This document shows positions 20,896 to 58,986 of a DNA stretch of 64,000 bases, in pieces. Numbering within the stretch: the first letter of the stretch is position 1; each line of letters starts with the position of its first letter. Location: contig CAYVDC010000008.1 of NCBI GenBank assembly GCA_964450735.1, positions 647-64,646 of the forward strand. Reading direction: 5' to 3'. The position numbers were made by a program, and so were the translations under genes. Under the pieces are notes generated by a model that saw nothing but the letters and a program-made list of their open reading frames with translations, made no database searches and had not been told where the DNA came from. Origin of the DNA: an uncultured Candidatus Saccharibacteria bacterium (GTDB taxonomy: Bacteria > Patescibacteriota > Minisyncoccia > Phycocordibacterales > UBA9973).

Positions 20896-23800
20896 ATGGA
20901 AGAAAAAAATATGCAACAAGAAAAAAGCGAAGCAGCTCTCAAGGAAGAGCGCATTTTGGCGTTTTGGAGAGAGAACAATACTTTCCAAAAATCCCTTACT
21001 AAAGAGTCTCCAAAAGGAAACTACGTTTTTTATGATGGTCCTCCGTTTGCGACAGGACAGATGCACTACGGACATATTCTTGGAAGCACGGCCAAGGACT
21101 CGATCGGCCGTTATCAAACTATGCGCGGGTATCATGTACCTCGACGATGGGGTTGGGACTGTCACGGTTTGCCAATCGAAAACATTGTTGAAAAAGAATT
21201 GGGCATTGCCGGACACAAAGAGATCGAAGCATACGGCGTAGAAAAATTCGTCGAGTATGCTCGAAGCAAGGTTTTGCAATACGACAAAGACTGGGAACGG
21301 GGAGTAGAGCGCATCGGACGATGGGTGGATTTTAAAGGCGGCTACAAGACAATGGACAACACGTTTATTGAAAGTGTCTGGTGGGCACTCGGACAATTGC
21401 AGACGAAAGGATTGATTTACGAAGGCGTCCGCGTCCTCGCATATTGTTCACGCTGCGAAACTCCAATTGCGAATTCCGAAATCGCGATGGATAACAGCTA
21501 CAAAGACATCACTGATATTTCAGTGTATGCAAAGTTTGAGCTTGTTGACGAGCCGGGTACCTACTTTATTGCGTGGACGACAACACCATGGACGCTTCCG
21601 GGAAACTTCGCACTTGCAGCAAGTCCAGAATTCAACTATGTCAAAATAAAAATCGGCGATGCTTTTTACATACTCTCCAAAGAGCGGCTTTCAGTCATCA
21701 AGGATGCCTATGAAATCGTTTCGGAAGGTGTGGATATTTTTGGTAAGGCGTATAAGCCCCTGTTTGATTATTTTACAGATAAGGAAATTGAAAATAAGGA
21801 AAAAGCATGGAAGGTCTACGCAGCTGGGTATGTTACCAACGACGCAGGAACTGGAATCGTGCACATCGCACCTGGATACGGTGAAGAAGACATGGAACTG
21901 GCAAAGCGAGAAAATATTCCATTCATGCATCACGTGTTGAACGATGGAACATTCGCCGAAGTCGTTCGCGATTTCATAGGTCTTTCAGTAAAGCCAAAGT
22001 CCGACGAAAAAGACGGACACCAGAAAACTGATATCGAAATCATCAAGCATTTGGCGCACCAAGGATATTTATTTGGCAAAGAAAAGATTGTTCACTCGTA
22101 CCCTCACTGCATGCGCTGCGACACGCCGATCATTTACTACGCACTTCCATCATGGTTCGTAAACATTCAGAAAGTAAAACCGGAAATCATAGAGAATGCA
22201 AAAGAGATGAATTGGATTCCGTCACACTTGAAAGACGGGCGATTCAAGAATAACCTCGAAGGAGCTCCAGACTGGACGATTTCTCGAAATCGCTACTGGG
22301 CCACACCGCTTCCGTTTTGGAAATCTCCTGAAGGCAAACTCATGACAATTTCATCGCTTGATGATTTGAAATCGAAAGCCAAGAAATCTGGCAACAAGTA
22401 TTTTGCTATGCGTCACGGTTATGGTCAGCACATGGATGCTGGCGTTGTTTCCGGACTTGATCATGATTCATACCATCTGACAGAAGAAGGCCGAAAGGGA
22501 ATTCTCGCTCAGGCTGAAAATCTCAAGAAAGATGGTATTACGATGATCATCGCTTCGCCGCTTATTCGAACGCAAGAAACGGCAAAAATGGCTGCTGAAA
22601 TTCTCGGCGTATCTGCGGATTCGATTATTACCGACAAGCGCCTCCGCGAATATGATTTCGGCGAATGGGATGGCAAGCCATGGCAGGAGTATGTGAACTA
22701 CCGTAAGGATCACATTGCTTCATACGACGAACCACTCGGCGGGTCTTCGCTCCTCGAAACGAAAAAGCGCTTCGGTGAATTTATGTATGAGCTTGAAGAA
22801 AAATATCAGAACGAACGCATACTGATTGTAACGCACGGCATTTTCTTTGAAACCGTTGCAGCTGTTGTTGTAGGCGCTGATAATGCGAAGTCGCTCGATA
22901 TTCTCTTTACGCAATTCACTGGCAATCGAATCCAGCCTGCGGAAATCCGAGAAATCCCATTTGTTCCGCTTCCTCATAATCACAACTATGAACTTGATCT
23001 GCATCGTCCATACATCGACGCTATTAAATTGGTTGATGAAAAGGGCACGATTTATGAGCGTATCCCAGAAGTGATCGACTGCTGGTTTGAATCAGGTTCA
23101 ATGCCGTTCGCGCAAGACCACTATCCATTCGAGCGTCCACACTGGAAGGAAGAAAATTTCCCTGCGGGATTTGTGGCTGAATACATCGCTCAAACTCGAA
23201 CATGGTTCTACTACACGCATGCTGTTTCAACCATGCTTTTTGGAGCTGCACCGTTCAAAAATGTCGTAACGACAGGAACACTTCGCGCAGAAGATGGTCA
23301 GAAAATTTCCAAGTCAAAAAAGAATTATCCTGATCCATGGATCTTTATCGACAAATATGGCGTAGATCCACTTCGCATGTACCTTATGTCAGGTCCGCTC
23401 ATGAAAGGGGAAGATGCAAACTTTTCTGAAAAAACTGTTGCCGAAATTGCCAATAAGATAATTGGCCGTCTTGGAAACGTGCTTTCGTTCTACGAACTCT
23501 ACCGAGATACTTCACTTGAACAGAAAGCATTTTCAAATCCAACTAATGTGCTCGATATTTGGGTACTTTCACGGTTGAATCAATTAGTTTCTGGAGTCAC
23601 TGAAGGAATGGAAGCGTACGACATGGCGGAAGCAACTCGACCGTTTGATTTATTTGTTGATGATCTTTCGACTTGGTATCTTCGCCGATCACGTGATCGT
23701 GTGAAAGAAGGGGAAGCTGAAGCAAAACAAACTCTTTATACCGTTTTGAAAACTGTGGCAACAGTGCTTGCTCCGTTCGCGCCGTTTACTGCCGAAGATA

Positions 23801-24312
23801 TGTGGCTCCGACTCAAAAATGAGTCTGATGTTGAAAGCGTGCATCTGGCAAATTGGCCGTCTGAACTCGGTGCTACTTCGACTGAAGTTCTCGAAGCAAT
23901 GAAGATAACCCGTGACATTTGCGCTGCTGGACATATGCTTCGTCAAAAAGCGAACATCGTTGTTCGTCAACCACTCGCAGCATTGTTTGTACCAGAAATT
24001 CCAGGCAAAGAATATGTGGAAATTTTGAAGGACGAACTTAACGTGAAAGAAATTCAACAAGGTGAAATAGTCTCATTAAATGAGACTATTTCACCGGAGC
24101 TCAAACTCGAAGGTGAATACCGCGATCTCGTCCGCTCGATTCAAGAACTTCGCAAGCAGACTGGTTTGCAGCCAAGCGATCGAATAACGATTACACTTAC
24201 AACTGAAGCTGAAAAATTGGTCGCTCTATTCATGGATGAATTCAAAAAGACAGTTCAGGCAGATCAGGTTTCCTTCGAAGCGATTGAAGCGCCTAAACTT
24301 GCTAAAATATAA
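20896..24312 (+). CDS. ileS: isoleucyl-tRNA synthetase (type 2) with inserted histidine-phosphatase (PGAM-like) domain
   Basis: PPFATGQMHYGHIL (HIGH), KISKSKKN (KMSKS), CWFESGSMPFAQ, editing-domain motifs; insert with RHG..SPLIRTQETA..EYDFGEWDG..VTHG at about nt 22380-22990. Confidence 0.9.
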   Translation: MEEKNMQQEKSEAALKEERILAFWRENNTFQKSLTKESPKGNYVFYDGPPFATGQMHYGHILGSTAKDSIGRYQTMRGYHVPRRWGWDCHGLPIENIVEKELGIAGHKEIEAYGVEKFVEYARSKVLQYDKDWERGVERIGRWVDFKGGYKTMDNTFIESVWWALGQLQTKGLIYEGVRVLAYCSRCETPIANSEIAMDNSYKDITDISVYAKFELVDEPGTYFIAWTTTPWTLPGNFALAASPEFNYVKIKIGDAFYILSKERLSVIKDAYEIVSEGVDIFGKAYKPLFDYFTDKEIENKEKAWKVYAAGYVTNDAGTGIVHIAPGYGEEDMELAKRENIPFMHHVLNDGTFAEVVRDFIGLSVKPKSDEKDGHQKTDIEIIKHLAHQGYLFGKEKIVHSYPHCMRCDTPIIYYALPSWFVNIQKVKPEIIENAKEMNWIPSHLKDGRFKNNLEGAPDWTISRNRYWATPLPFWKSPEGKLMTISSLDDLKSKAKKSGNKYFAMRHGYGQHMDAGVVSGLDHDSYHLTEEGRKGILAQAENLKKDGITMIIASPLIRTQETAKMAAEILGVSADSIITDKRLREYDFGEWDGKPWQEYVNYRKDHIASYDEPLGGSSLLETKKRFGEFMYELEEKYQNERILIVTHGIFFETVAAVVVGADNAKSLDILFTQFTGNRIQPAEIREIPFVPLPHNHNYELDLHRPYIDAIKLVDEKGTIYERIPEVIDCWFESGSMPFAQDHYPFERPHWKEENFPAGFVAEYIAQTRTWFYYTHAVSTMLFGAAPFKNVVTTGTLRAEDGQKISKSKKNYPDPWIFIDKYGVDPLRMYLMSGPLMKGEDANFSEKTVAEIANKIIGRLGNVLSFYELYRDTSLEQKAFSNPTNVLDIWVLSRLNQLVSGVTEGMEAYDMAEATRPFDLFVDDLSTWYLRRSRDRVKEGEAEAKQTLYTVLKTVATVLAPFAPFTAEDMWLRLKNESDVESVHLANWPSELGATSTEVLEAMKITRDICAAGHMLRQKANIVVRQPLAALFVPEIPGKEYVEILKDELNVKEIQQGEIVSLNETISPELKLEGEYRDLVRSIQELRKQTGLQPSDRITITLTTEAEKLVALFMDEFKKTVQADQVSFEAIEAPKLAKI

Positions 24313-26408: not shown

Positions 26409-28340
26409 ATGCAACCAGGAGAAAACGAAAAGCCTCATCGACTTGATGATATTCAACAAAAATTATACAGCCCAAATCCAAATGCTCTTCCAAAACGGCG
26501 CACTGGAGTTCTTCACCAGGTGAACCACGCGGTTTCGTCGGCGTGGAACAGCAAACCCGTAACTGCGGTTTCCGACTCAGTCAAAAACGTCGGCATGCAG
26601 ACATCATTTTTCAAAAAATTCTTTATCGGCACTGTTATCTTTTTTATAATTGCGGTCTTGATCGGCCTCTTCTTGTTTTTTGGAGGATCGGGTGGAGTTT
26701 CAAATGACAATGTCGCGGTAAACGTCTTGGGTAATGCGTATACTCCGGGAGGCGAAGCACTGCCCCTTACTGTTGAAATCGCAAACGCGAATCCTGTTGA
26801 TCTTGAGCTTGTCGATCTTATTGTTCAGTACGGGCGAAACAAGCCAGATGTTGTCGATCCAACAGACATAACGACCAATCGTATTTCTATCGGTACTGTT
26901 CCTGCGGGGAAATCAATCAACCAAAAAGTTGACCTTACTCTTTACGGCGTAGAAGGGACGAGCAAGCAAGTGAAATTTACCCTCGAGTATCACACTGCTG
27001 GGTCAAACGCAGTGTTCCAAAAGGAAAAGCTCTTTTCTGTTGTCATCAATACTGCACCAGTTACGATACTTGTTGATGCTGATACTTCAATTACCGTTGG
27101 GCAACCATATACATTTAATGTATCGGTTACCTCAAACGTCAAACGAGTCATTCCAAATTTAACGGTCAAGATGGATTATCCAATCGGTTTTGCCTTTTCT
27201 AATGCCGAGCCAGCACCGTCATATCTTTCAAATGTATGGAGCTTTGGTGATCTTGCTCCAGGCGAAACCAAGAAGATCAAAGTCGTTGGAGCGATCACTG
27301 CTGAAAACGGAGAGGAGCGCTCATTCCGCGCGTATGCAGGAACAGCGAGCGATGGAGACAAAAATGTTATCGGCACAACTTTTACTTCGATCATACACAC
27401 AGTAGATATTGTGAAACCATTCTTGTTTGCTTCACTTACGGTGAACGGCAAAAAAGGACCAGAGGTTTCAGTCCAATCGCGCTCTACAATCAATGGGCTT
27501 GTTCGCTGGAGCAATAATTTGCCGGTACGTATCTTGAACGCAAAAATTACCGTTAAATTAACTGGCTCGCTCATTGATCAAACGACAGTTATCCCTGATG
27601 GAGGATTCTATAATTCTACTGACAATACTATTGTATGGGATAGAAATACTTCGCCGCAGCTTGCGAGCCTTGAGCCTGGCGCTGAAGGTTCGTTCGGATT
27701 TACTTTTTCAACGCTCTCACTTTTCCAAAATGGTGGAGTCGCAAGCGATCCGAAAGTAGCACTTGATGTTTCTATTGCAGGACAACAGCCGCAAGAGGGA
27801 ACCAATAGTCAAGAAGTAAACAATATCGAACATACTGTCGTGCGCCTCGGTACTGATTTTCAAATGAATGCTGCAGCTTCATATACAGGACAGCCATTCA
27901 TTAACAACGGCCCGCTTCCTCCAGCGGTGAATCAAAAAACTACCTATACGATCAAATGGGCGCTCACCAGCTCCGCAAACAATGTGAACAATGTTCGAGT
28001 CAGTGCTTCGATGCCGACATATGTGCATTTCCTCAACAATGTGTATCCAGCCAATTCCGATGTCAAAATTGATCCAGTATCGGGCAACATTGTATGGAAT
28101 GCAGGAACTGTTACCAAAGGTTCTGGATTTACCACTGATCCTAAATTTGTTTTCTTCCAAGTTGAACTGAGCCCTTCATTGTCACAGCTCGGCAAAGTTC
28201 CGGTATTGATCAATGCTGCAACTGCGTCTGGAACGGATGCGTATACAAATGCCGCCCTCACCGCAAGCTGGAGAGAGATAACCACCCAGCTGTATAATGA
28301 CCCAGTCTTTCAGCCTGGGGACGACAAGGTGGTCCAATAG
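26409..28340 (+). CDS. large N-terminally membrane-anchored beta-rich extracytoplasmic protein, function unknown
   Basis: single TM helix (FFIGTVIFFIIAVLIGLFLFF) then about 560 aa Thr/Val/Asn/Ser-rich region. Confidence 0.5.
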   Translation: MQPGENEKPHRLDDIQQKLYSPNPNALPKRRTGVLHQVNHAVSSAWNSKPVTAVSDSVKNVGMQTSFFKKFFIGTVIFFIIAVLIGLFLFFGGSGGVSNDNVAVNVLGNAYTPGGEALPLTVEIANANPVDLELVDLIVQYGRNKPDVVDPTDITTNRISIGTVPAGKSINQKVDLTLYGVEGTSKQVKFTLEYHTAGSNAVFQKEKLFSVVINTAPVTILVDADTSITVGQPYTFNVSVTSNVKRVIPNLTVKMDYPIGFAFSNAEPAPSYLSNVWSFGDLAPGETKKIKVVGAITAENGEERSFRAYAGTASDGDKNVIGTTFTSIIHTVDIVKPFLFASLTVNGKKGPEVSVQSRSTINGLVRWSNNLPVRILNAKITVKLTGSLIDQTTVIPDGGFYNSTDNTIVWDRNTSPQLASLEPGAEGSFGFTFSTLSLFQNGGVASDPKVALDVSIAGQQPQEGTNSQEVNNIEHTVVRLGTDFQMNAAASYTGQPFINNGPLPPAVNQKTTYTIKWALTSSANNVNNVRVSASMPTYVHFLNNVYPANSDVKIDPVSGNIVWNAGTVTKGSGFTTDPKFVFFQVELSPSLSQLGKVPVLINAATASGTDAYTNAALTASWREITTQLYNDPVFQPGDDKVVQ

Positions 28341-32104: not shown

Positions 32105-35100
32105 ATGGAAGGCCTACCTAAAAACAGCTCAGGAACATCGAATGAGAGGAAGTCAGATACCCAATCGTTTTCAGACAAATTAAAAGAAAAATCAAAATCG
32201 GTTTTTTCTTCAATAGGTAAAGCGGGGCGCAGGACATTCCTGGCTGGGGCACTTGCTACGACTGCGCTAACTACTGTCGCTCAGGTAAAAGTTGCGCCTA
32301 AAGAAAATCCTACTGAACAGATGAGTCTTGCAGAACTCAAGGAATTGGCACAAACAGATCCTTTCACTGTTCTGAAAGCCGTAGAAACATTAGATTCGCT
32401 TGAACAAAAAGAAGTCCTTCCAATCATGGAAGAAGCACTCCTCGTGAATGAACCAAGCGCTCTTTTGTATTTCTTTTCAGAGAACAAAAATTATCCTGAT
32501 ATATATGATGCAGACATGGTCAACCGAGCATTTGAAGCATCGGTAGCCAAAATACAAAAGGGTGACAAGGATGAAGAATGCGTAAGAATTTTAGTTAATG
32601 CGGGCTTGCTGGCAGACAACCCTAATGGAGATGACATCTTCAAGGCTGCCCTGAAAAACGTATCGCCAGCAGTAATCATAGATGAAGAATATCGTTCAGC
32701 GTATTTGAAATACCCGCATGCAGCAGAATTGGTGAAACCATATGTAAAGAAAGCCATTGAAGGACTTGTACAGAAGGGACATTGGGACGCTATCGGTCCA
32801 TCTCTAAAAAGTTTTATAGATGAACCGTGGGCAGAGCCAATACTCAAAGAATGGAATAAAAACAATATGGGCGTCACTTCTTTTTATGGCGATGTGCTTA
32901 TGTCAAAACCGTTTGGGCAGGAAATAGTAGTCGATGCACTCAAAAAAGATCCAATTTCTGTTCAAAGTTTGAGTATATCGCAAGACAAGATGTCGCCGGC
33001 CCTCGAGAGTCAGGTCATTGAGGCACTTCAGTATTCGTTAGAAGACGAGAACTTTGAAAAACTAAATTCCTATGCCTTTATTGACCAAGGTCGTGTTTTT
33101 CGTGCTGTTCCTGGAGGAGATACTTTGTATAAAAAGTTGGCATCAAAGCTTGCGACATACCTACCATCGCTTGTTTTGGATAATATTGTTGATTCAAAAT
33201 TTGACTGGCTTGGAGAAGAAACAAAAAAAGAACTGTTACAGATGGCAGCTGAATCTGCTGATGCAAGGTATGTTTTCAAACATGCGCAGTTGTTCTCAGC
33301 TGAGCCGTATGGAAGAAAAGTCATTGAAAAAGCGGCACAGGAAACTCCAGGCGAGGTTATTAATCATGCTACTCAGCTTATACCAAGGGAGGCATACGTC
33401 GACATAATCCGCGATGCGGTAAATCTCGTAGTAGTAAGTGATCCTGATCGAATTTTATATAACCCGATTGTGATTGACCTTATTGCTGTAGATAGAAAAG
33501 AGCACGATGTATTGCTAGAAAAAGTTGTCAGAGCAACAGCTGAGCATTCAGGTGGGGAGCATACTATTGTGTCGCAATATAAGGAATTCGCAGAAAAACC
33601 ATACGCAAAAGAAATCCTCGAGTCGGCTCTCTTGCAAATGCCGCAGGCAGTTGTCAGCGCAACAGGGAAAGTAAAAGGGGAAATGGAATCTAGCCAAAAC
33701 CCTTACATACAAAAACTCTTTTCTCTTTCAAACGATCCTTATATCGCTGAAGAGTCGGAATACTTTACCAGAAATGCTATTTATTCAGCGCTGCAATACA
33801 TTACTGAAAAAGATGTTACGGTAGACGCGTCTTTTGCAGAACCAGCCAACCTGTTCCGCGCGTATATGTATACAAAGAAATCATCCAACCCGATCGGGTT
33901 GAATGGCGTGGAAAAGAACCTGCGTTTGACTTCAAATTCCTTGATTCAAAAAATTAACCGCATGCATGACGAACCTGATTCAGTTCGATTTGCATCAGTG
34001 TCCGAGTATGACCCAGAAATATTGTACACGCTGGCAACATACGGAGAGCAAGAAGCTTTTACTTCCACATTCAACGGGCTTTTCAACAGAACGATCGACG
34101 GCCTGAAGAAAGAACAAAAAAACGGATATACATTTCTCGAAGAGATGTCGTTTATGCAAGCCCGCACTTTTATACGGGAATGTGCTTCATATAATCGTCT
34201 TGATGAATTCCTGAACACAATGGCTAAAGAGGACCAGAGAAAACTCCTCGAATGGTTTATTTCCGGAATCAATAGCGACAAAGAAGTTCTTACCGAGGGT
34301 GTGGTAATTGCAGACGTTATTTCTTCAGTCGAGGACAAGAGTATTCTCGATGTTTTTGGAGCTACCATACAAAAGAAATATGCAGAGGGAGTCGCTTCAA
34401 AAAACCGCTCAATCGAAGTGGCATATGGATTGCTTGGCACATTGTATGCGCAGCAAACAGGGAATACTGACGCACAATTTGGAACCGAAGGACATATATA
34501 CCATATTGAACAGCTCGGAGAACTTTCCAAGGATTCCTTGTTTGGCCCCAACAAGACAAGTATTCATCGATACTATTTTTACAATGACTCAGACGGTCAA
34601 GGATCGTTCCAAAGTTTTACAAGCCAGTACGCGCACGATCCAAGCTGGAATTTTGAAGACAAAGGTGAGTATGTGGTAGTGTCTTCGGTAGCAGGAGAAA
34701 AAATAAAAATTTTTGCCAATAAGCCATTTGCTGAGAATGGAAATGAGATCGACTCGATTCTGGGCTCAAAGAATACGCCGATCAATGTCATTGTGCATCG
34801 AGGACACAGCTTCCACGCTGAGAAAACAGTTGCTGAAATACCAAGCACCGCAGCTCTCGTTTCTCTCGGTTCTTGCGGCGGATATCGTTTGCTCGACGGA
34901 GTGCTCAATCACTCGCCGAGTGCGCATGTAATTTCAACCAAAGGAACCGGAACAATGAAAGTGAATGACCCGATCCTGAAAGCAATCAATGAAGAAATTC
35001 GCGCAGGACATTCGATTAAATGGGCTGAGCTATGGACGAAATTTGAAGCGACACTAGGGGATAATCCTAACTTCAAAAATTACGTTCCCCCTAATAAAAA

Positions 35101-35155
35101 TTTAGGTTTGATGTTCATGAGTGCGTACAGAAATTTGATTAAAGAGAAAAATTAA
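32105..35155 (+). CDS. large (1016 aa) hypothetical protein with twin-arginine-like signal peptide and alpha-helical repeat body
   Basis: GRRTFLAGALATTALTTVAQV resembles Tat signal (RRxFL + h-region); recurring ..PY..E(I/V)(L/I).. helical repeats; distinct C-terminal about 170-aa domain (HRGHSFH..GSCGGYRLLDG). Confidence 0.5.
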   Translation: MEGLPKNSSGTSNERKSDTQSFSDKLKEKSKSVFSSIGKAGRRTFLAGALATTALTTVAQVKVAPKENPTEQMSLAELKELAQTDPFTVLKAVETLDSLEQKEVLPIMEEALLVNEPSALLYFFSENKNYPDIYDADMVNRAFEASVAKIQKGDKDEECVRILVNAGLLADNPNGDDIFKAALKNVSPAVIIDEEYRSAYLKYPHAAELVKPYVKKAIEGLVQKGHWDAIGPSLKSFIDEPWAEPILKEWNKNNMGVTSFYGDVLMSKPFGQEIVVDALKKDPISVQSLSISQDKMSPALESQVIEALQYSLEDENFEKLNSYAFIDQGRVFRAVPGGDTLYKKLASKLATYLPSLVLDNIVDSKFDWLGEETKKELLQMAAESADARYVFKHAQLFSAEPYGRKVIEKAAQETPGEVINHATQLIPREAYVDIIRDAVNLVVVSDPDRILYNPIVIDLIAVDRKEHDVLLEKVVRATAEHSGGEHTIVSQYKEFAEKPYAKEILESALLQMPQAVVSATGKVKGEMESSQNPYIQKLFSLSNDPYIAEESEYFTRNAIYSALQYITEKDVTVDASFAEPANLFRAYMYTKKSSNPIGLNGVEKNLRLTSNSLIQKINRMHDEPDSVRFASVSEYDPEILYTLATYGEQEAFTSTFNGLFNRTIDGLKKEQKNGYTFLEEMSFMQARTFIRECASYNRLDEFLNTMAKEDQRKLLEWFISGINSDKEVLTEGVVIADVISSVEDKSILDVFGATIQKKYAEGVASKNRSIEVAYGLLGTLYAQQTGNTDAQFGTEGHIYHIEQLGELSKDSLFGPNKTSIHRYYFYNDSDGQGSFQSFTSQYAHDPSWNFEDKGEYVVVSSVAGEKIKIFANKPFAENGNEIDSILGSKNTPINVIVHRGHSFHAEKTVAEIPSTAALVSLGSCGGYRLLDGVLNHSPSAHVISTKGTGTMKVNDPILKAINEEIRAGHSIKWAELWTKFEATLGDNPNFKNYVPPNKNLGLMFMSAYRNLIKEKN

Positions 35156-39072: not shown

Positions 39073-40197
39073 TTATTTCTGGCAGGCTATCATGTAGTCT
39101 GTCAGTTCTTTTGGTTCGAGTTCTCTTGAAATGTATAAATTGAAAAAGTTAAGAATACTTACCTTTTTTTGCTGCTGAGTGGGTGTTATTTTTAATTTTC
39201 CAACACCACGTAATCCATCAGAGAGGTAAATCGGATTTTCAAAAATATCTATCTCGTACAGCAGGCCTTCGTAATCAAAGGAATAGCGGGTTTTATAGAT
39301 AACTTTCAAGTCGTGATTTAATTCTTTACGAAGACGTTCATATTCTTCATGAGTAATTATTTTTTCGACTTGTGTATAGTCATCAACGCCGGTTTGGCGT
39401 TCTCTGGTATAGAAGAATGTTTCAGTACCATTATGCACTTTGCGGCGAATCCTGCGCGGTTTGTGAGCTGAGGCAACGGTATCTAAATAGATCTGTTCAA
39501 CATGAACTGCCGAGTAGCTAATGTTTAACTGCTCAAGCATGCGTATGTCGAATGATTTAAGATAGAACCGCTTTGCAAGGTTGTCCGATAAAGGCACCGG
39601 TAGTTGAAACGAAAGACAAAAGTTTTGATAGCCGCTGAACAACTTTTGTGAAAACGTTCCCCCATTGTTTGAGGTAACTTTTACATTCGGATGGGGTTGA
39701 TACGCCGCAAAGGTACGGTCGCAGGTGGCGATTGCACCAGGCAAGTCCTCATAACGCACAGCGTTATTTTGTTTGCCATAAAATCCAGGCGCTCCTTTAG
39801 CTGCAGTTTCCAAATACAGAATTGCATCGTACCGAGCACATAGATCCTCTATGGTCATGCCAAACTCAGCAATAAGCTGTAAAAATTCCTCAGTCGTTAT
39901 ATATCCACCACCATCAAACAGAGTCCTGTCGAAGATAATGAATATCGGGCCATCATAGCTGTCTGCTTCTGCTTGTTCGAGTGCATGCCGCTCAAGTTCA
40001 AGTATTTTTTTGAATACAAGAATTTGGAATGCCACTGAACCCGGGGTTGCACCTCCTGCTATGAGGATGCTTGCCGCTTCAGGGACAAAGTACGCTCTAT
40101 AGCCTGCATCTGTCAGTTGATTTACCAAATAACCGCCTAAAATACTTTTTCCTGCTCCAGGACCTCCGCCAATGCCAGCTGTGTATATTATTTTCAT
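39073..40197 (-). CDS. P-loop NTPase/kinase-like (AAA_28, NadR-RNK-like) domain fused to C-terminal CYTH-like domain
   Basis: N-terminus IIYTAGIGGGPGAGKS Walker A; C-terminal RRIRRKVHNGTETFFYTRER..VIYKTRYSFDYEGLLYEIDIFENP follows CYTH beta-barrel pattern. Confidence 0.55.
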   Translation of the reverse strand: MKIIYTAGIGGGPGAGKSILGGYLVNQLTDAGYRAYFVPEAASILIAGGATPGSVAFQILVFKKILELERHALEQAEADSYDGPIFIIFDRTLFDGGGYITTEEFLQLIAEFGMTIEDLCARYDAILYLETAAKGAPGFYGKQNNAVRYEDLPGAIATCDRTFAAYQPHPNVKVTSNNGGTFSQKLFSGYQNFCLSFQLPVPLSDNLAKRFYLKSFDIRMLEQLNISYSAVHVEQIYLDTVASAHKPRRIRRKVHNGTETFFYTRERQTGVDDYTQVEKIITHEEYERLRKELNHDLKVIYKTRYSFDYEGLLYEIDIFENPIYLSDGLRGVGKLKITPTQQQKKVSILNFFNLYISRELEPKELTDYMIACQK

Positions 40198-42649: not shown

Positions 42650-42682
42650 ATAAAAAACCCTCTCATGTGAGAGGGTTTTTTA
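42650..42682 (+). terminator. rho-independent terminator (AAAAACCCTCTCA..TGAGAGGGTTTTT)
   Basis: 13-bp perfect stem after rpsR. Confidence 0.7.
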
Positions 42683-42756
42683 TTTATCAAGAAATCATAT
42701 ATACTTTATATATAAACATAATTGCTTATGTGTATTTACTAGTAATTTTTTATTAT

Positions 42757-43401
42757 ATGGACCCACTTGATACCCAGCCGCAGCCACCTATTACTACAGT
42801 TCCTGTTGAACCGAGTAATGCAAAATGGATCGTTCTCGGAGTCATTGTTATTATTATAGGCATAAGTGGGATTATTTTTGCCCAAAGAAAAAATATGGTA
42901 CATCAAAATTCAGAAAATATTAAAGCCGAAGAGGTTGTTGCCGGTAATCCCGAAAAAGAAGAGTGGGTCGAATATACTCCTGGGGCTGAAGCAATACAGG
43001 AGATACGAAGCGCAGTACACAAGCGAATGGCGGCTTTCCAAAGCAATGACCCTGAGCAGTTTAAAGCTTTCATGAGGGAGGTGATCCTCGCTCATCCACG
43101 CATTCCCCAAGAGGAAAAAGACAAGATTCTTTCCGAACAGGCGGTGGTCTCCAAAGAGGAGGCGGAGTCTCAGGCAAAATTTTGGTCAGCAGGATTGGGT
43201 TCGGCTGAGAAATTAAAAACGCTTCCAGAAAATTTTCTGCTGTCGGAAAAGGAAAAGGTGCTCTATTACAAGAAGAGGGACACACTCAGTCTCGTCCTGT
43301 CTTTTGAAGATGACGACTCTGTTTTGGCTAAACAAGTTTTTATGGAATATGTGAAAACTGGTGATGGAAAGATCGTGATTCTTGATATAAAAACTAACTA
43401 A
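42757..43401 (+). CDS. hypothetical N-terminally membrane-anchored protein
   Basis: start reset to MDPLDTQPQ; TM helix WIVLGVIVIIIGISGIIFA. Confidence 0.45.
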   Translation: MDPLDTQPQPPITTVPVEPSNAKWIVLGVIVIIIGISGIIFAQRKNMVHQNSENIKAEEVVAGNPEKEEWVEYTPGAEAIQEIRSAVHKRMAAFQSNDPEQFKAFMREVILAHPRIPQEEKDKILSEQAVVSKEEAESQAKFWSAGLGSAEKLKTLPENFLLSEKEKVLYYKKRDTLSLVLSFEDDDSVLAKQVFMEYVKTGDGKIVILDIKTN

Positions 43402-43420: not shown

Positions 43421-43891
43421 ATGATTGAAATAACTTTGCCAAGAATCGGTGAAAATGTAACAAGTCAAATAAGAGAGAGTTTTGAGAAGTCAAAAAACGG
43501 GCTAATTGTTGTTTCTAGTAATGACCGAAATTGGAATGACTATATGGTCAATGTGGTTATTTCTGAATTGCGTAACGGAATATCTTCGCTTGAAGATTGG
43601 CATGAGAAAATTGTTTTAGTAAATGAAGACGAAAAGGAAATGTTCCCATGGCTAAAACTGACTGATTTTGCGGATGCTGAATCAGCAGATATAGTATATG
43701 TAGGCAATATTCGCAGCCCAGAATTGACCAAAGATACTTTCGAACTTGCTAAAAAGACTAAAGTAATAGGGTACGCGCTCACATACACGGCCGCTGATTT
43801 TATCAGCCGGGCTCAAGAATTTGGAGCAACAAAAGAAGACATCGATACAAATCTCATTGCTGTAATCCAGCAAGAACGTGACATTGCATGA
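43421..43891 (+). CDS. hypothetical protein
   Basis: 156-aa ORF; stop overlaps next start (ATGA). Confidence 0.4.
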   Translation: MIEITLPRIGENVTSQIRESFEKSKNGLIVVSSNDRNWNDYMVNVVISELRNGISSLEDWHEKIVLVNEDEKEMFPWLKLTDFADAESADIVYVGNIRSPELTKDTFELAKKTKVIGYALTYTAADFISRAQEFGATKEDIDTNLIAVIQQERDIA

Positions 43892-45115: not shown

Positions 45116-45997
45116 CTACGTAGAAGTGGGTAATTTTGGTAATGATGGATGTTGAGAAGACAGATGGTTAATATCAGGCGCGGCCGAAGCTATCGGTCGA
45201 ATTTCTGTTGCTCGATATATGCATGCTGTAAAGGGAGGAGTGGAACCAATTCGCTCAAGGCTTTTATATGCCAGCTTCTGTTCTGGCCATCCTGTACGGA
45301 ATGTATCCCCGCAGAGGTTTTCCCAGTGAACGAGTGCATGGCCATGTTCTGTGAGCATAATACCGCAGCCGTAAGCTTCGTTCCAAGTTACAATTACGCC
45401 GGTGTTTGCTTCGTGGTTTCGTGGAGTTTTTTCCTGTGGATGCGGAAGTAAAGATGCTTTGATGTCGTTGAGGAAATCTTTTGCCAAAAGGTGCTTTCCG
45501 ATATTTTGATACCAAGATAAGCCTTTTACTACAAATTCTGCTTCCGAATTGATATAAATGTTCCCTGAAGCAATTTTTTGAGTCCGCAAATATAAGATTC
45601 CATGTTGAATTACGACGGACGTTTGCCATACTTCAACTGCTCCTGAGCGCCAATCTATGGCTGACATGCAGATATGGTTGGCTTCATTTTTCGTACAGAG
45701 GGATTTTGTGGTCCCTCCGATAATTTGTATGGATCTCTCAAAGTAGATATGATCCTCGGTCCTGTGTGATTCTTCCAGGGTTCCTATCTTTTGAGCATTG
45801 CCGTTAGTTTCAAAAAAATACGAATATATCTTTTCTGTATGTATCGGAAGTCGTACGATGGGTACCTCAAGCTGTATTTTGATATTCTTCATATCTGTCA
45901 GCATAAGTGGATATTGGCCATCGTTCGGTCCTGCGATTGTTAGTGGTCCTTGCAACATAAAGCTGTGAAATGGCGTCGATATGCGTCTTGATCCCAT
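45116..45997 (-). CDS. hypothetical protein
   Basis: 293-aa ORF followed (minus strand) by perfect 22-nt palindrome CCCACTTCTACGTAGAAGTGGG + T-run terminator at about 45095-45125. Confidence 0.4.
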   Translation of the reverse strand: MGSRRISTPFHSFMLQGPLTIAGPNDGQYPLMLTDMKNIKIQLEVPIVRLPIHTEKIYSYFFETNGNAQKIGTLEESHRTEDHIYFERSIQIIGGTTKSLCTKNEANHICMSAIDWRSGAVEVWQTSVVIQHGILYLRTQKIASGNIYINSEAEFVVKGLSWYQNIGKHLLAKDFLNDIKASLLPHPQEKTPRNHEANTGVIVTWNEAYGCGIMLTEHGHALVHWENLCGDTFRTGWPEQKLAYKSLERIGSTPPFTACIYRATEIRPIASAAPDINHLSSQHPSLPKLPTST

Positions 45998-51928: not shown

Positions 51929-52520
51929 ACAGGCGTGTCACGTTTTCGGAGATAGGAACCGGGAACATCGATACTGGCGCGCCTCGGATCGATCATTGAA
52001 AATTGCATATTGATATATTCTCCGTATCTTGGAGAAAAAAGATTTTACAGTTTTCTCTGTGTCATCCTCGGCATAGACGATGATGTTTGTTTCAAAAACT
52101 TTTATTATTTTTTGAAACGATAGGCGTCATTGGTGATTGGTCCGATAGCATCGCGTATGTCTTGCAGCGTATGTGATGCACGCTTTCGTTCTATACATAT
52201 ATATGTATGAGATGGAAGTATATCGGCCCTGTCGACAAGGCAGATATCTTTTTGGATCGATTCGTCGAAACAAAAAGGTTCAGCGGGTTTGATTTTTCCC
52301 GCTATCAAAAAACATCCGGAGCAAATACATGGTTGTGTCTTCTCTAATTAAGAAACCATTTCCATGTTTTGCATATGCTTGCCCGAGGCAAGCATAATGC
52401 ACACTTTTACGTTGTCGAACGTAATACATTAAGTGCATATCACACAAATAGATTGATGTCAGAGATACTCTGATTTTATTATCCGTGTTCTCGCATCCTT
52501 TCTATAGTTTTCAAATTATT

Positions 52521-55500
52521 ATGACTACATTCATCAAATCAAGCGCTGCTAAGGCAGTCGTAGGTTTGTTGGCTCTTGCGGTTCTCGCGATTGCATCTTC
52601 AGCATCAGCTGCATATACATTCACACAGAACCTCACAGTCGGTTCAAACTCAGCTGAAGTTAAACAGCTTCAGATGTTCTTGAACACCAACGGATTTACA
52701 GTTTCTACAACTGGTGCAGGTTCACCAGGAATGGAAAGCAACTACTTCGGAACAAAGACTCGAACAGCTCTCGCAGCTTTCCAGGCAGCTAAGGGTATCT
52801 CACCTGCAGCTGGTTACTTTGGTCCTTTGACTCGAACTACAATCAACGCTTGGGCAGGTTCAACAACTCTCCCAGCTGGTTGTACAACAGCTTCAGGATA
52901 CAGCTCAACAACAGGTCAGCCATGTTCAACAGGCTCAACACTTGTTCCTGGCTGTACTTCAACAACAGGCTACAGCTCAACAACAGGTCTCTCATGCGCA
53001 GGTGGTTCAACACCAGCTCAGACAGGTCCTGTAACAGCTTCACTCTCAACAACTAACCCTGCTTCAGGCGTTATTGTTACAGGTCAGGCTAATGCTAAGC
53101 TTGTAGATGTCGTGTTCGCAGGTGCAGGAACAGTTAACTCTGTTACTCTCAAGCGATCAGGTATCTCAACTCAGAGCACACTTCAGAACGTATACCTCTA
53201 CGATGGCGTTAATCGCTTGACAGACGGTTACTCATTCAACAACAACGGTGACTTGACTATGAACAACCTTAACTTGGCTGTTAATGGATCACGAACAATC
53301 TCAGTTGTTGCTGATGTATCTACAGTTTTAGGAGGTGCTTTGTCAGGTCAGACAATTGCTGTTGCTCTCACATCATTTACATCTGGAACAACTGTTTCAT
53401 CTGTAAACGTTCAGGGTAATACAATGTCAGTTGCTGATGGTACTAACACTCTTGCTTCAGTCTCATTTACAAGCGCTCAGTCATTTGGCGGTGCTACTGT
53501 AAATGCTGGAACATCTTCATACACAGTTTACCGACAGGCTATTCAGGTTAATACTCGAACTGTCTGGCTTAAGGCTGCTAACTTCCGAATCGTCGGCTCA
53601 GCTCCAACAGGTGCTGTAGCTAACGCTGGATTGTTTGTTGATGGTGTCAAGGTTGGAAACAATGCTTCAATGACAATGGCAAATGGTACTAACTACTTGT
53701 CATTTGATCTTTCATCAATGCCTTTCGCTCTTACAACTGGTGGTCACACTGTTGAAGTTCGAGCTGATATCGTTGGTGGTGCTAACTACAACTTTACAGT
53801 ATCACTCCAGCAGGCTTCAGATCTTATGATCTTGGATCCTCAGGTTGGAGTAAATATCGCTATTTCTCCATTCACTAGCTACGCTGGTGGACAGGTAAAC
53901 ATTGGTGCAGGTTCAGCTACATTTACAGTTGACCCAGCATTTAGCGCAATGACAAATGTAACTGGCGGTGCTTCAAATGCAGCTATCGCTAAGTTCAAGA
54001 TTCGTGGTTACGGTGAAGATGTGAAAGTTACACAGCTTACAGTAACTCCAGTCTTGTCAAGCACAACACCTACACAGTCATGCCCAACAGCTTGCGGACT
54101 CCAGAATGTAACACTTTACTTCAACGGTTCACAGGTTGGTTCACAGCAGAACTGGACAACAGGTGCTTTGACATTTAACCTTGGTTCACAGCTCATCATT
54201 CCTGCTAACACAGATAGCGTTCTTGAAGTTCGTGCTGATCTCCGCACAACTGCTGGCGCTAACTACACTGCTGGAACTGTTTCTGCAAACCTCGGTTCAG
54301 GAACAGCTGAAGGATTTACTTCACACACTTCAGTTCCAACTCCTGCTGTTACTGGTACATCATTGACAATCCAGACTGGACTCCTTGCTGTTTCTGCAAA
54401 CGCAGGCTACACAAGCCAGAACATCAGCCCTAATACTGCTGGTGCTAAGATTGGATCATTTGTTTTCCAGAACCAGAGCTCATCTGAATCAGTTCGTGTA
54501 ACTTCAGTTCAGGTTGCTCTCGCTTTCACAGGTGCACAGAGCTTGACAAACTTCTCAGGTCTTCGAACTTCAGAAGCTTCTGGTTCAGGCTCAACTCCAG
54601 TTCAGCCACAGGCATCAAACACATTCTCAGTAGACTTCACTCTTGCTCCAGGTGCTACAAAGGTGCTTGATATCTTTGCTGATGCTGGTTCTGTGACAAC
54701 TGGTACTATTGCAACAACTATCACTACTACTTCAATTGGTTCATCAAGCAACGTCTCACAGACAATCACAAGTGTTGCTGGTCAGACAATCACAATTGTT
54801 AGCGGTACTGTTGCTACTCCAACAGTTCTCTCACAGTCTTCAACTCAGTCACAGTACATCGCAGCTGGTACAACAGTTGGTACTACTAATGGTTCAAAAG
54901 CATCATTCAACTTTGTTGGAAGCAACGGTGCTTCAACAATCAGCGAACTTAAAGTTACTGTAACTTCTGGTACAGCTAACCAGACTCCAGTATCTTCAGT
55001 TACTGTTGGTGGTGTCACTGCTCCTGTAGTTGCAACTTCAACTACAACAGGTGATGCTTACTTGACTAACCTCAACATCGCAGTTCCTAACGGTGCAGGT
55101 GGTGCTAACGTTGACGTGTTCTTGAATTACACTGCAGTTGGTTCAACTGGTGTAACTTCAGGTACAACTGCTACTGCAGCTATCACATATGTTCGTTCAA
55201 CTTCTGGTGGAACAACATCAACAACTACTCCAAACGTTTCAGCTCCAACTATGACTGTAGTAGCTTCAAAGCCACTCGTCTCTGTTAATTCAACACAGCA
55301 GACAGGTCTTATCCTCGGTGCTGAAAACAAGATTGGTGAAGTAACAATTTCTGCTGATGCAGCAGGTAACATTGGTCTCAAGACCCTTGTATTCAATGTT
55401 GGTGCTTCAGGTCTTAGCGCTGCTGTTGATATCAACGATACTACTCCTGTTCTTCGATCAGGTGGAGTACCGGTTACTGGTGTTACTTGTGCTGCTGGTT

Positions 55501-55751
55501 CTGCTACAGGACCAATCACATGTACTTTCACTGGTACAACAGGTGCTACAATCACACCTGGAACTCCTGTTACATACAGCTTGTTTGCTACTGTTAACAA
55601 CTCAGCAGCTTCTGGTTCTACAGCTTCTATTTCAACTCAGGTTGATCAGAGCGGATTCCAGTGGGCTGATGTTGCTGGTAACAGCACAACACTCCGATCA
55701 GGAGCTCTTGTATACAACTTCCCAACAAATAGCTACTCAATCCGTCAATAA
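52521..55751 (+). CDS. giant cell-surface protein: signal/anchor, peptidoglycan-binding (PG_binding_1-like) domain, Cys-containing short repeats, long Thr/Ser/Gly/Val-rich beta region
   Basis: EVKQLQMFLNTNGF..YFGTKTRTALAAFQ..YFGPLT matches PG-binding domain pattern; tandem CT(T/S)xxGYSSTTG motifs; start reset to MTTFIKS. Confidence 0.6.
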   Translation: MTTFIKSSAAKAVVGLLALAVLAIASSASAAYTFTQNLTVGSNSAEVKQLQMFLNTNGFTVSTTGAGSPGMESNYFGTKTRTALAAFQAAKGISPAAGYFGPLTRTTINAWAGSTTLPAGCTTASGYSSTTGQPCSTGSTLVPGCTSTTGYSSTTGLSCAGGSTPAQTGPVTASLSTTNPASGVIVTGQANAKLVDVVFAGAGTVNSVTLKRSGISTQSTLQNVYLYDGVNRLTDGYSFNNNGDLTMNNLNLAVNGSRTISVVADVSTVLGGALSGQTIAVALTSFTSGTTVSSVNVQGNTMSVADGTNTLASVSFTSAQSFGGATVNAGTSSYTVYRQAIQVNTRTVWLKAANFRIVGSAPTGAVANAGLFVDGVKVGNNASMTMANGTNYLSFDLSSMPFALTTGGHTVEVRADIVGGANYNFTVSLQQASDLMILDPQVGVNIAISPFTSYAGGQVNIGAGSATFTVDPAFSAMTNVTGGASNAAIAKFKIRGYGEDVKVTQLTVTPVLSSTTPTQSCPTACGLQNVTLYFNGSQVGSQQNWTTGALTFNLGSQLIIPANTDSVLEVRADLRTTAGANYTAGTVSANLGSGTAEGFTSHTSVPTPAVTGTSLTIQTGLLAVSANAGYTSQNISPNTAGAKIGSFVFQNQSSSESVRVTSVQVALAFTGAQSLTNFSGLRTSEASGSGSTPVQPQASNTFSVDFTLAPGATKVLDIFADAGSVTTGTIATTITTTSIGSSSNVSQTITSVAGQTITIVSGTVATPTVLSQSSTQSQYIAAGTTVGTTNGSKASFNFVGSNGASTISELKVTVTSGTANQTPVSSVTVGGVTAPVVATSTTTGDAYLTNLNIAVPNGAGGANVDVFLNYTAVGSTGVTSGTTATAAITYVRSTSGGTTSTTTPNVSAPTMTVVASKPLVSVNSTQQTGLILGAENKIGEVTISADAAGNIGLKTLVFNVGASGLSAAVDINDTTPVLRSGGVPVTGVTCAAGSATGPITCTFTGTTGATITPGTPVTYSLFATVNNSAASGSTASISTQVDQSGFQWADVAGNSTTLRSGALVYNFPTNSYSIRQ

Positions 55752-56565: not shown

Positions 56566-57960
56566 ATGAAAAAAATCTGTATTCTAATTTTTGTTATTGC
56601 TGGTGCAAGCCAGGCGCGTTCTCAGGCTGGTGTTGTTGATTTTGGAAACAGTACTGGAATAGTGAAATGCAATCTGCCATACACGGGCGTAGTGAAATAT
56701 TGCTCAGATGGGGGAAGCGTGTCATGTCAAAGTTCTGCGGTGGCAAGCCTCATATCTTCAAATTGGTATAAGAGCGCATGGTACGCAAATATTTGTCAGT
56801 TTAATTTGGCAAACCCCGGTGACACAGCCATAGGTACGGGTTCGGAGCTGCAGTTTTTGGCGGATGATTTTGCCGATCTGCGATTTCAAGTTTCAGATTT
56901 TAATTGCTCAAGTACCTTCAAGCTGTCATTCAAAATTAAGATTAATCGACCGTCGTCTCAGCATTACTCATATCCAAGCATCATGCTGTATTTTGGCGAT
57001 AGAGCTTCTGCATATCTGGATAAGAATAAAACTCCGAATTTTTATAACAGTCCGTACCCAGAAGATACTGCTATATTCGGATCAATTAATTTCCGTTCAG
57101 ACGGTTCGCTCCCGGGTGGCTGTAACGGTGCGGATGTTATGTGTGCACAGAGTACACATGGAGTTGGGATATATCCAGCCATGGCTACCTATGCTATGAG
57201 TCAGGGAGAAGTGCATACGGTGCAGGTATTTGCCAATACAGGTTCAAGCGACGAACCCTATGTCTCGCCAGGCGGAAGCTTCAAGGTCCTGCCGTCAAAA
57301 CACTACGATTTGTATATTGATACTGTAATGGTATATGGGGTTTCTTTTCCTAATTACTATTACAAAGGTGGTTCGATTTCTGGCTTTTCTTGGTATATGA
57401 ATCAGCCGAATTATTTTTCGCCAATCATTATTGATGATATAGAATGGTCGTCTGAGTTTTTCCCAGTGCTTTTGCCAGTGGAACTTTCACGATTTGATGT
57501 GGCAGATTGCAGCAATAACTTGCCATCCGCGTGTCTGAAGTGGGAAACAGAAACAGAATTAAATAACGAAGAGTTTGTGATTGAGCGGAGTACAGACGCA
57601 ATTATGTTTGACACAGTAGGCTCAGTGCTGGGTTATGGAACCAGTACCGTGCATCGCACCTACCAGTACGAAGATATGGTTTCCGAGGGCACGTACTATT
57701 ACCGGCTCAAGCAGATTGATTATGATGGCCACTTTGAATATTCGGATATACGCTTTGTGCGCATCCGGGAAAAACCACAGGAATGCAACATGAAAAATAT
57801 TTTTCAGCAGAAAGATATTGCTTATCGGCTGTATGATATGAATGGCAGGGAAATGAAAGTGCTTTTTGACGATAGAGCTTTCATTGAAAAAGGAATGTAT
57901 ATTGTTACGATCTTGGATGGCAGTGAAGTGCGATGTCGGGGGAAAGTATGGATAGAATGA
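56566..57960 (+). CDS. secreted protein with Bacteroidetes-style C-terminal sorting-domain-like tail (T9SS CTD-like)
   Basis: signal peptide MKKICILIFVIAGASQA; C-terminus YYYRLKQIDYDGHFEYSDIRFV..IAYRLYDMNGREMKV..GMYIVTILDGSEVRCRGKVWIE follows the pattern of T9SS C-terminal domains; codon usage visibly richer in CTG/GCG/GTG/CGG than neighbours. Confidence 0.5.
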   Translation: MKKICILIFVIAGASQARSQAGVVDFGNSTGIVKCNLPYTGVVKYCSDGGSVSCQSSAVASLISSNWYKSAWYANICQFNLANPGDTAIGTGSELQFLADDFADLRFQVSDFNCSSTFKLSFKIKINRPSSQHYSYPSIMLYFGDRASAYLDKNKTPNFYNSPYPEDTAIFGSINFRSDGSLPGGCNGADVMCAQSTHGVGIYPAMATYAMSQGEVHTVQVFANTGSSDEPYVSPGGSFKVLPSKHYDLYIDTVMVYGVSFPNYYYKGGSISGFSWYMNQPNYFSPIIIDDIEWSSEFFPVLLPVELSRFDVADCSNNLPSACLKWETETELNNEEFVIERSTDAIMFDTVGSVLGYGTSTVHRTYQYEDMVSEGTYYYRLKQIDYDGHFEYSDIRFVRIREKPQECNMKNIFQQKDIAYRLYDMNGREMKVLFDDRAFIEKGMYIVTILDGSEVRCRGKVWIE

Positions 57961-58811: not shown

Positions 58812-58986
58812 TCGCTAACTTTACAGAATTAGCCTGCTGTGCTATATTGCCTTTGCCGTAGACAACAGGTGGGCATACCCATAAATCCTGTTTAGGTCGA
58901 TAACGTAATTCTTCGGAAGCGTTGTCACGGAATTTTATGCGGCCTCTATGGGCCGTTTTGTGTTTTTAACTGAAATCTCAAATATT

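Follow-up and report, generated by a model that had tools for sequence, protein, structure and literature searches.

A bacterial AAA_28-CYTH protein whose triphosphate tunnel has lost its metal ligands and retained its basic residues

The locus described here raises the question of what a triphosphate tunnel is for when it is joined to a small-molecule kinase and lacks the residues with which such tunnels hold metal. It is situated in a window of 64,000 nucleotides, the whole stretch of DNA that was analysed, from contig CAYVDC010000008.1 of an uncultured Candidatus Saccharibacteria bacterium. The gene in question occupies positions 39073-40197 on the minus strand and encodes a protein of 374 amino acids (aa), referred to below as the query, in which an N-terminal P-loop domain of the Pfam family AAA_28 is followed by a domain of the CYTH or triphosphate tunnel metalloenzyme (TTM) type. 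Within a large family of bacterial kinase-TTM proteins, annotated yet experimentally uncharacterised, the protein is an extreme, rare variant with a tunnel predicted to be fully dead. The explanation favoured here, with moderate confidence, is that an active small-molecule kinase or NTPase is fused to a tunnel that is catalytically dead and binds a ligand.

The first step concerns the identity of the C-terminal half. Direct scans of the protein with Pfam and NCBIfam returned AAA_28 only, with no CYTH match and no NCBIfam family near threshold. Pfam CYTH matched neither the query nor any of its seven full-length homologues, and a phmmer search of the single sequence against the PDB gave nothing significant. 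A hidden Markov model (HMM) of the C-domain, built solely from the clade of close relatives to which the query belongs, reached NeuTTM (NE1496), a stand-alone inorganic triphosphatase, at E 0.52 in the PDB; a match to DUF3289 (E 0.001) obtained with the same HMM is probably spurious. The connection is provided by more distant members of the family. The C-domain of one full-length relative, P0007, starts with EIERKFL and matches NeuTTM (2FBL/3TYP) at E 9e-8, and a family profile of 71 sequences matches the same protein over the whole domain at E 1.3e-15. Comparison by hhalign of the clade-only C-domain profile with the profile of canonical C-domains gave a probability of 99.6 % (E 4e-24). Moreover, when the clade-only profile was run against 5.8 billion proteins, it retrieved a stand-alone protein of 167 aa (P0189) that passes the Pfam CYTH threshold and for which hhalign gave 96.9 %.

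Structure models agree well with the linked profiles. The full-length AlphaFold2 (AF2) model, with a predicted local distance difference test score (pLDDT) of 87 and a predicted template-modelling score (pTM) of 0.86, found as its best Foldseek match in the PDB the plant kinase+TTM protein AtTTM1 (7Z67, E 2.6e-9), followed by TTM/CYTH structures for the C-terminal half and thymidylate/deoxynucleoside kinases for the N-terminal half. Modelled alone, the C-domain reached a pLDDT of 90, with nine predicted beta strands and short helices. Its top 22 Foldseek matches were TTM/CYTH or Med18/20 folds, and among the PDB matches of the two models at probability 1.00 were PH1819, PH1012, SaTTM, AtTTM1, AtTTM3, class IV cyclases, YgiF, and Cet1. 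The template-modelling (TM) scores of 0.44-0.49 demonstrate a fold class and not close similarity, and the domain is therefore a divergent member of the TTM fold. Taken together, linked profiles and structure models show that the C-terminal 176 aa form a CYTH/TTM domain. The original prediction, which had recognised a CYTH pattern in this half from the sequence, is thus borne out, since the half does score as CYTH in profile searches and in Foldseek.

Regarding the tunnel itself, the published CYTH signatures are ExExK, RxR, and the ExE of strand beta8, binding metals M1 and M2 (PMC8233210), and a catalytic dyad of Tyr28 and Lys52 has been proposed for NeuTTM (PMC3440374). The segment HVEQIYL had been taken for an altered ExExK motif with Gln in place of the Lys. 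In every alignment, this segment falls instead on the second conserved strand, IxQxYL, which is kept in the query as I/V233, Q235, Y237, and L238; the ExExK position is SDNLAKR at aa 204-210 (Table 1). The real change is accordingly larger than the mild one first supposed: ExExK has become S/N..A.R, ExE has become K.T, and the catalytic Lys has become Glu. Among 150 relatives, Glu occupies position 204 in 124, position 208 in 117, position 336 in 133, and position 338 in 121, while Lys occupies position 210 in 137 and position 266 in 135; the query has S, A, K, T, R, and E at these positions, respectively. Read as a hexad in sequence order, the tunnel is SAREKT in the query versus EE[KR]KEE in 107 of the 150 sequences outside the group P0001-P0005, and the full canonical set of ExExK, K266, and ExE is present in 102 of 150 relatives. 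Two further positions have changed, namely 274, usually R and here Y, and 276, usually E and here Q. Tunnel residues retained in the query are Q235, Y237, R249, R251, T264, E278, K302, R304, E315, and D317. The changes K266E and E336K are reciprocal, with E and R at these positions in the relative P0040, as if two adjacent positions of the tunnel had exchanged their charges; a salt bridge between E266 and K336 may be proposed. Since S204, A208, K336, and T338 replace the metal-binding Glu residues and Glu266 replaces the equivalent of Lys52, two-metal hydrolysis has probably been lost. Because the metal ligands are gone and the phosphate-gripping basic residues are kept, the tunnel is most likely a binding module. 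The coupled handling of a nucleoside or polyphosphate substrate that had been suggested from the sequence is hence plausible as binding, not as catalysis by the tunnel of the query.

The distribution of these losses across the family places the query at one extreme. Of 155 family sequences, 108 have kept every one of the four acidic metal ligands, while 10 have lost one, 17 two, 14 three, and 6 the complete set. These six are the query, its four relatives at approximately 50 % identity, and P0040 at 39 % identity, and no other sequence among the 155 belongs with them. The basic tunnel residues are essentially invariant throughout, even where acidic ligands have been lost. A clade-only full-length profile searched against 5.8 billion proteins retrieved six 90 % clusters comprising nine member sequences, with scores of 584-681 bits; the match that follows them has 187 bits. 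A midpoint-rooted neighbour-joining tree groups the clade as monophyletic, with a long stem, and is compatible with an origin inside the canonical family as well as with a sister position. The canonical family and the query are homologous collinearly over their full length, at about 30 % identity (E 1e-25 to 1e-36 with the single sequence), and have all invariant residues of the P-loop domain in common. The clade differs from the canonical family in having S/N/K, A/S, R, E, K/R, and T/V at the hexad positions together with R274Y and E276Q, and also in an insertion of two residues in the ExExK strand, an insertion of 5-7 residues after the strand at aa 312-324, and a C-terminal plug helix of reduced length. 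Canonical members are found mostly in gut and rumen Clostridia, Erysipelotrichales, and Lachnospiraceae, whereas the clade has different, small-genome-like hosts, with ribosomal and aminoacyl-tRNA synthetase (aaRS) genes as neighbours.

The N-terminal half presents a different picture. Pfam AAA_28 matches aa 10-175 at E 2.7e-10 (41.2 bits; cut-off 27) and also matches all seven full-length homologues, so that the earlier assignment of a P-loop kinase-like domain with the Walker A sequence GGGPGAGKS stands. The AF2 topology is that of a P-loop kinase core, with a five-stranded parallel sheet and a low-confidence LID-like loop at aa 130-151 that bears N145, R148, and E150. Foldseek of this half returned thymidylate and deoxynucleoside kinases with TM-scores of 0.6-0.68 normalised to the target, and the family profile matched thymidylate kinase and adenosine phosphosulphate (APS) kinase in the PDB. 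Against Aquifex thymidylate kinase, the family profile aligned VPE-A-T with REPGG, DRG with DR[YFH], and ..AY with ..AY; furthermore, several family members have sub-threshold Pfam matches to Thymidylate_kin or dNK. The Walker B residue D90 is located in the sequence IIFDR. Residues K17, E40, D90, R91, R148, and E150 are essentially invariant across the 155 family sequences, including those in which acidic tunnel ligands have been lost. Judged from these sequence patterns, the AAA_28 domain probably works as a P-loop phosphotransferase or NTPase of thymidylate-kinase-like fold. Glu40, which is invariant and a candidate acceptor-site or general-base residue, favours a nucleoside or nucleotide phosphotransferase, as do the DR motif and the LID Arg.

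A mechanism may be proposed for the favoured combination of an active kinase or NTPase and a dead, ligand-binding tunnel. ATP would bind at the Walker A motif (K17/S18), the D90-R91 motif and LID residue R148 would serve phosphoryl transfer, and the acceptor site would be formed by E40, Q58, D95, and Y99. The tunnel would grip the phosphates of a (poly)phosphate-bearing ligand via R210, R249, R251, K302, and R304, and would then either offer this ligand to the kinase domain or, once occupied, gate kinase activity, as proposed for AtTTM1. The TTM domain of AtTTM1 is catalytically incompetent, with E-to-Q substitution; an anion is bound by its basic residues, it packs into the kinase acceptor site, and it has been proposed to regulate or gate the kinase (PMC9582702). 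Several points weigh against this explanation. The N-domain could be an NTPase instead of a kinase, and the remaining E278, E315, and D317 could bind metal in a different geometry. There is no conserved neighbourhood that points to a substrate, the commonest neighbour occurring in 6 of 80 Firmicutes loci, and literature searches found no experimental or biochemical work on any bacterial AAA_28-CYTH member. In addition, AtTTM1/2, likewise without ExExK and ExE, show weak pyrophosphatase activity (PMC9582702, PMC8233210).

The last of these points also supports an alternative in which the tunnel is still an enzyme with altered chemistry. Here, E266, E278, E315, and D317, together with the basic residues, would hydrolyse a different or shorter substrate, for example pyrophosphate or a nucleoside di- or triphosphate, with or without metal, and the protein would be a bifunctional kinase/phosphatase. 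Across the six clusters, 24 C-domain columns are invariant, including the clade-specific block TRERQTG..EY.Q.E, and E266, Q276, and E278 are invariant within FFYTRERQTG.DEYTQVE; such strictly conserved clade-specific residues suit a new active site as well as a binding site, and the K266E/E336K swap preserves both charges in the tunnel. Against it stand, however, the absence of every one of the four M1 and M2 ligands known from characterised TTMs and the judgement, made from crystal structures, that the TTM of AtTTM1 is catalytically incompetent (PMC9582702). This alternative is considered unlikely.

A full-length profile was searched against 1.84 billion representatives at 50 % identity, giving 7631 matches at E<=1e-3, of which 1871 reach E<=1e-30. 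In the best 150, nearly every protein is 340-400 aa long and is matched in a single profile stretch over both domains (positions 1-371). In a scan of one genome per GTDB species, at least 504 loci were found, the relatives listed being at 30-35 % identity; among the best 80, residues from about 9 to 319 or further of the query were matched, and the hosts were, with few exceptions, Clostridia, Lachnospiraceae, Oscillospiraceae, Erysipelotrichaceae, and other gut or rumen Firmicutes. The view that this fusion is unusual in bacteria does not survive such counts, and nucleotide-kinase fusions of CYTH had already been recorded (PMC8233210). Pfam CYTH (PF01928, cut-off 23.2 bits) is above threshold in P0039 (30 bits), P0130 (28 bits), and P0176 (36 bits), but it misses P0067 (16.5 bits) as well as P0006 and P0007, in which there is no match. 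The architecture probably seems rare in domain databases because Pfam CYTH barely detects such proteins; most members are filed merely as "AAA domain" proteins, and the fusion is under-counted. One clade member carries the JGI label "predicted ATPase/CYTH domain-containing protein".

Some family members carry additional domains. An XRE-type helix-turn-helix (HTH) is present at the N-terminus of P0039, P0075, and P0194, and these HTH-AAA_28-CYTH fusions fit a sensor role. Further fusions, each seen in a single metagenomic sequence, are to a RelA/SpoT alarmone-synthetase domain (P0060), to guanylate kinase (P0115), and to a second CYTH domain (P0176 and P0130). The fusions hint that the whole family is tied to nucleotide metabolism or sensing. 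Of the genes that surround the Firmicutes loci, the S component of an ECF transporter (PF07155, riboflavin-transporter family) is the next gene downstream, in the same orientation, in 5 of 80 and is no more than two genes away in 6 of 80, an example being L054 6085-6630 (+) at E 8.5e-16. This adjacency is a weak hint of a link to the uptake of a vitamin-like substrate and is too weak for a substrate to be assigned. The defence-system models of PADLOC gave no match to the AAA_28-CYTH protein.

The guanylate kinase and RelA/SpoT synthetase fusions suggest nucleotide phosphorylation chemistry, and they speak for a second alternative, in which the ligand of the tunnel is itself the phosphoryl donor or acceptor of the P-loop domain. 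The protein would then be, for example, a PPK2/PPK3-type nucleotide kinase that depends on polyphosphate or triphosphate, with the dead tunnel serving in substrate delivery instead of regulation. P-loop kinases of the thymidylate kinase superfamily have repeatedly become the polyphosphate kinases PPK2 and PPK3 (PMC12995831), the structures nearest to the N-domain are thymidylate kinases, and the basic tunnel residues are retained family-wide. The fusions in question are, however, single representative metagenome sequences, and in AtTTM1, the only solved kinase-TTM tandem, the gamma-phosphate of ATP lies about 16 Å from the tunnel ligand, a distance that speaks against direct transfer there (PMC9582702). 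Donor delivery is regarded as doubtful, more so than an altered hydrolytic chemistry.

It could also be supposed that the C-terminal domain is a decaying relic without its own function and that only the kinase domain matters, given the loss of catalytic residues, the long stem branch, the fast evolution of the clade, and genomes that appear reduced. Within the clade, C-domain identity is 43-67 % at an N-domain identity of 53-68 %, whereas canonical pairs of similar N-domain divergence average 36 %; the C-domain is thus conserved as well as the N-domain and better than in the canonical pairs. Because its identity stays so high relative to those pairs, the domain is taken to be under purifying selection and not decaying. 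The invariant columns noted above and the confidently folded model are at odds with decay in the same way, and no truncated, kinase-only version was found in the clade. A relic is accordingly very improbable. Hardly more credible is a CYTH domain active as triphosphatase or cyclase, its ExExK only mildly altered, that is fused to a NadR-type ribosylnicotinamide kinase (RNK) in an architecture rare in bacteria: the CYTH fold is confirmed and the Pfam family AAA_28 does include the NadR kinase domain, yet HVEQIYL is the IxQxYL strand, the real ExExK and ExE are both abolished, the architecture is abundant, and the resemblance to NadR does not extend beyond the P-loop.

The comparison with NadR may be given in full, since the RNK type had been named in the original prediction and holds only at the level of the Pfam family. 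The NadR RNK domain and the query have in common Pfam AAA_28, a GGxxxGK[ST] P-loop, and a thymidylate-kinase-like structure (PMC7221760), and the N-terminal HTH of NadR has similar counterparts in some family relatives. When family and clade N-profiles were compared by hhalign with the single E. coli NadR sequence, alignment was restricted to 26-27 columns at the Walker A motif (26 columns at 62 %; range 61-62 % probability), with no detectable similarity beyond them; a target of one sequence limits the sensitivity of this comparison. No NadR structure was among the PDB profile matches at E<=0.01, which instead were to thymidylate kinase and APS kinase. The query has no nicotinamide mononucleotide adenylyltransferase (NMNAT) domain, and the immediate flanking genes include no NMNAT, PnuC, or NAD genes, the rest of the window having been scanned in part.

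Among characterised systems, AtTTM1 and AtTTM2 (7Z67) resemble the favoured arrangement of an active kinase and a dead tunnel, and the query may be regarded as their bacterial analogue. Like the query, they consist of an N-terminal P-loop small-molecule kinase followed by a TTM domain that lacks the ExExK/ExE ligands and keeps the basic residues. Their kinase, however, belongs to the uridine/cytidine kinase/PRK group, whereas that of the query is AAA_28 by Pfam, with thymidylate/deoxynucleoside kinases as structural neighbours. Identity between the query and 7Z67 is about 12 % and global superposition is poor (TM 0.28, root-mean-square deviation 12.8 Å). The query also lacks the extra N-terminal helix, the coiled coil, and the C-terminal membrane anchor of the plant proteins, ending at aa 374 (...ELTDYMIACQK) with no hydrophobic tail. 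In plant TTM1/2, Glu has been replaced by Gln, whereas in the query it has been replaced by Ser, Ala, Lys, and Thr, with the Lys/Glu charge swap. Because the kinase families differ and identity is only about 12 %, the two are most likely convergent, not orthologous. NeuTTM is the closest solved sequence relative of the family C-domain; strand order and the RxR, K-x-R, and E-x-D motifs are common to both, but NeuTTM consists of one domain and is active, with ExExK, Lys52, and ExE in place, residues that the query does not have.

Kinase-TTM tandems have been studied solely in plants. The bacterial AAA_28-CYTH family, which is large, occurs commonly among Firmicutes of the gut and rumen. It offers a natural experiment, in that the kinase site and the basic tunnel residues are constant while roughly one sampled member in four has lost metal ligands to a varying extent, and the clade has lost them entirely. 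The prediction that follows is that the core function of the tunnel is ligand binding and not hydrolysis. Tentatively, it is possible that the task of the tunnel throughout the family is to sense or hold a triphosphate-type ligand (inorganic triphosphate, polyphosphate, or an alarmone-like nucleotide) that controls a nucleotide or nucleoside kinase, hydrolysis being optional. The clade would then be a pure-sensor end-point reached independently of plant TTM1/2, in which Lys266Glu and Glu336Lys re-tuned the tunnel for another ligand in reduced-genome bacteria living on salvaged nucleotides. For the organism from which the window derives, the protein represents one more probable salvage or regulatory kinase, with modest practical consequence.

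Several features of the locus support the reality of the gene (Table 1). Re-translation gave an ATG start and no longer upstream start. Five homologue clusters at about 50 % identity (E 1e-101 to 1e-117) are present in other assemblies, and synteny is kept in the five closest clade members, P0001-P0005, with P0040 located elsewhere. Where the context is readable, the shared order is an M16 peptidase, an AI-2E transporter, and metG, followed by the AAA_28-CYTH gene in opposite orientation and, beyond it, tatD and rpsF-ssb-rpsR. Because strong homologues occupy the same neighbourhood in other assemblies, the ORF is a real, conserved gene; it looks monocistronic. Between it and the convergent metG, there is a hairpin of 14 bp with an upstream A-run and a downstream U-run, which none of 200 shuffled sequences equalled in stability and which is likely a bidirectional intrinsic terminator. 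A consensus terminator scan overlooked this hairpin and reported a weaker site within the coding sequence. In the region shared with the divergent tatD, a consensus promoter scan yielded nothing.

Table 1. Positions of the AAA_28-CYTH gene, of its domains and conserved residues, and of the adjacent intergenic features within the 64,000-nucleotide window.
Feature	Position	Strand	Basis or remark
Complete coding sequence, AAA_28 P-loop domain then CYTH/TTM domain	39073..40197	-	ORF (open reading frame) list, re-translation, homologues
N-terminal P-loop kinase-like domain, aa 1-198, Pfam AAA_28	39604..40197	-	Pfam, AF2 topology, Foldseek
Walker A / P-loop GGGPGAGKS, aa 10-18	40144..40170	-	G11, G12, P13, G16, K17 near-invariant in family
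Glu40 (motif VPE-A-T)	40078..40080	-	150/150 family members; aligns with thymidylate kinase REPGG segment
Asp90-Arg91 "DR" motif (Walker B Asp and catalytic Arg)	39925..39930	-	Aligns with thymidylate kinase DR[YFH]
Arg148-Tyr-Glu150 in LID-like loop	39748..39756	-	R148 in 149/150, E150 in 145/150 family members
C-terminal CYTH / triphosphate-tunnel-fold domain, aa 199-374, predicted catalytically inactive	39076..39603	-	Profiles, AF2/Foldseek
True ExExK position, S204-D-N-L-A208-K-R210	39568..39588	-	E->S, E->A, K->R, two-residue insertion
HVEQIYL, aa 232-238, second conserved strand IxQxYL (NeuTTM LRQGYL with Tyr28)	39484..39504	-	Alignments
R249-I-R251, RxR basic tunnel motif, retained	39445..39453	-	Motif definition PMC8233210
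T264-R-E266; 266 corresponds to NeuTTM Lys52, here Glu (charge reversal)	39400..39408	-	Lys in 135/150 relatives
Y274-T-Q276-V-E278 versus canonical R.E.E: Arg->Tyr, Glu->Gln, last Glu kept	39364..39378	-	Alignment
K302-T-R304, basic tunnel residues retained (NeuTTM VEKTRY segment)	39286..39294	-	Alignment
E315-I-D317, conserved acidic pair retained (NeuTTM FELDVF)	39247..39255	-	Alignment
K336-I-T338, beta8 ExE metal-binding position, both Glu lost	39184..39192	-	Alignment
Hairpin with A-run and U-run flanks between convergent metG and AAA_28-CYTH gene; likely bidirectional intrinsic terminator	39015..39049		Fold -25.3 kcal/mol, z -5.7
90-bp intergenic region common to divergent tatD; presumed promoter region	40198..40287		Gene positions

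The locus of P0040 is of a different kind. This relative is encoded within an S10 ribosomal-protein operon (L086 1-10619), in which five genes are inserted between rplB and rpsS. The insert consists of a PG_binding protein, two unknowns, DAGK, and P0040 itself. In addition, the genes called for L16 and S17 in this operon are 22 nt apart, and the L29 gene was not called between them.

Elsewhere in the window, positions 20896-24312 (+) encode a class-I aaRS of 1138 aa that resembles IleRS (tRNA-synt_1 at E 2.7e-120, Anticodon_1, DUF5915). A histidine-phosphatase domain (PF00300, E 1.4e-26) is placed at aa 505-667 of this protein, between the halves of the catalytic domain, which is an unusual aaRS insertion. 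Five ORFs are without any Pfam match (32105-35155, 45116-45997, 56566-57960, 42667-43401, and 43421-43891), one of them 1016 aa long, while 52485-55751 encodes a PG_binding_1 protein of 1088 aa and 26409-28340 a DUF11 protein. This gene content, with many aaRS and ribosomal genes, large Pfam-less ORFs, PG-binding, and DUF11, suggests an uncultivated bacterium with a small genome; a CPR/Patescibacteria-like affiliation would, on this basis, be no more than a guess. The window contains no rRNA genes, and its sole Rfam match is a ribosomal protein L10 leader (RF00557, 46.8 bits) at 58838-58970 (+).

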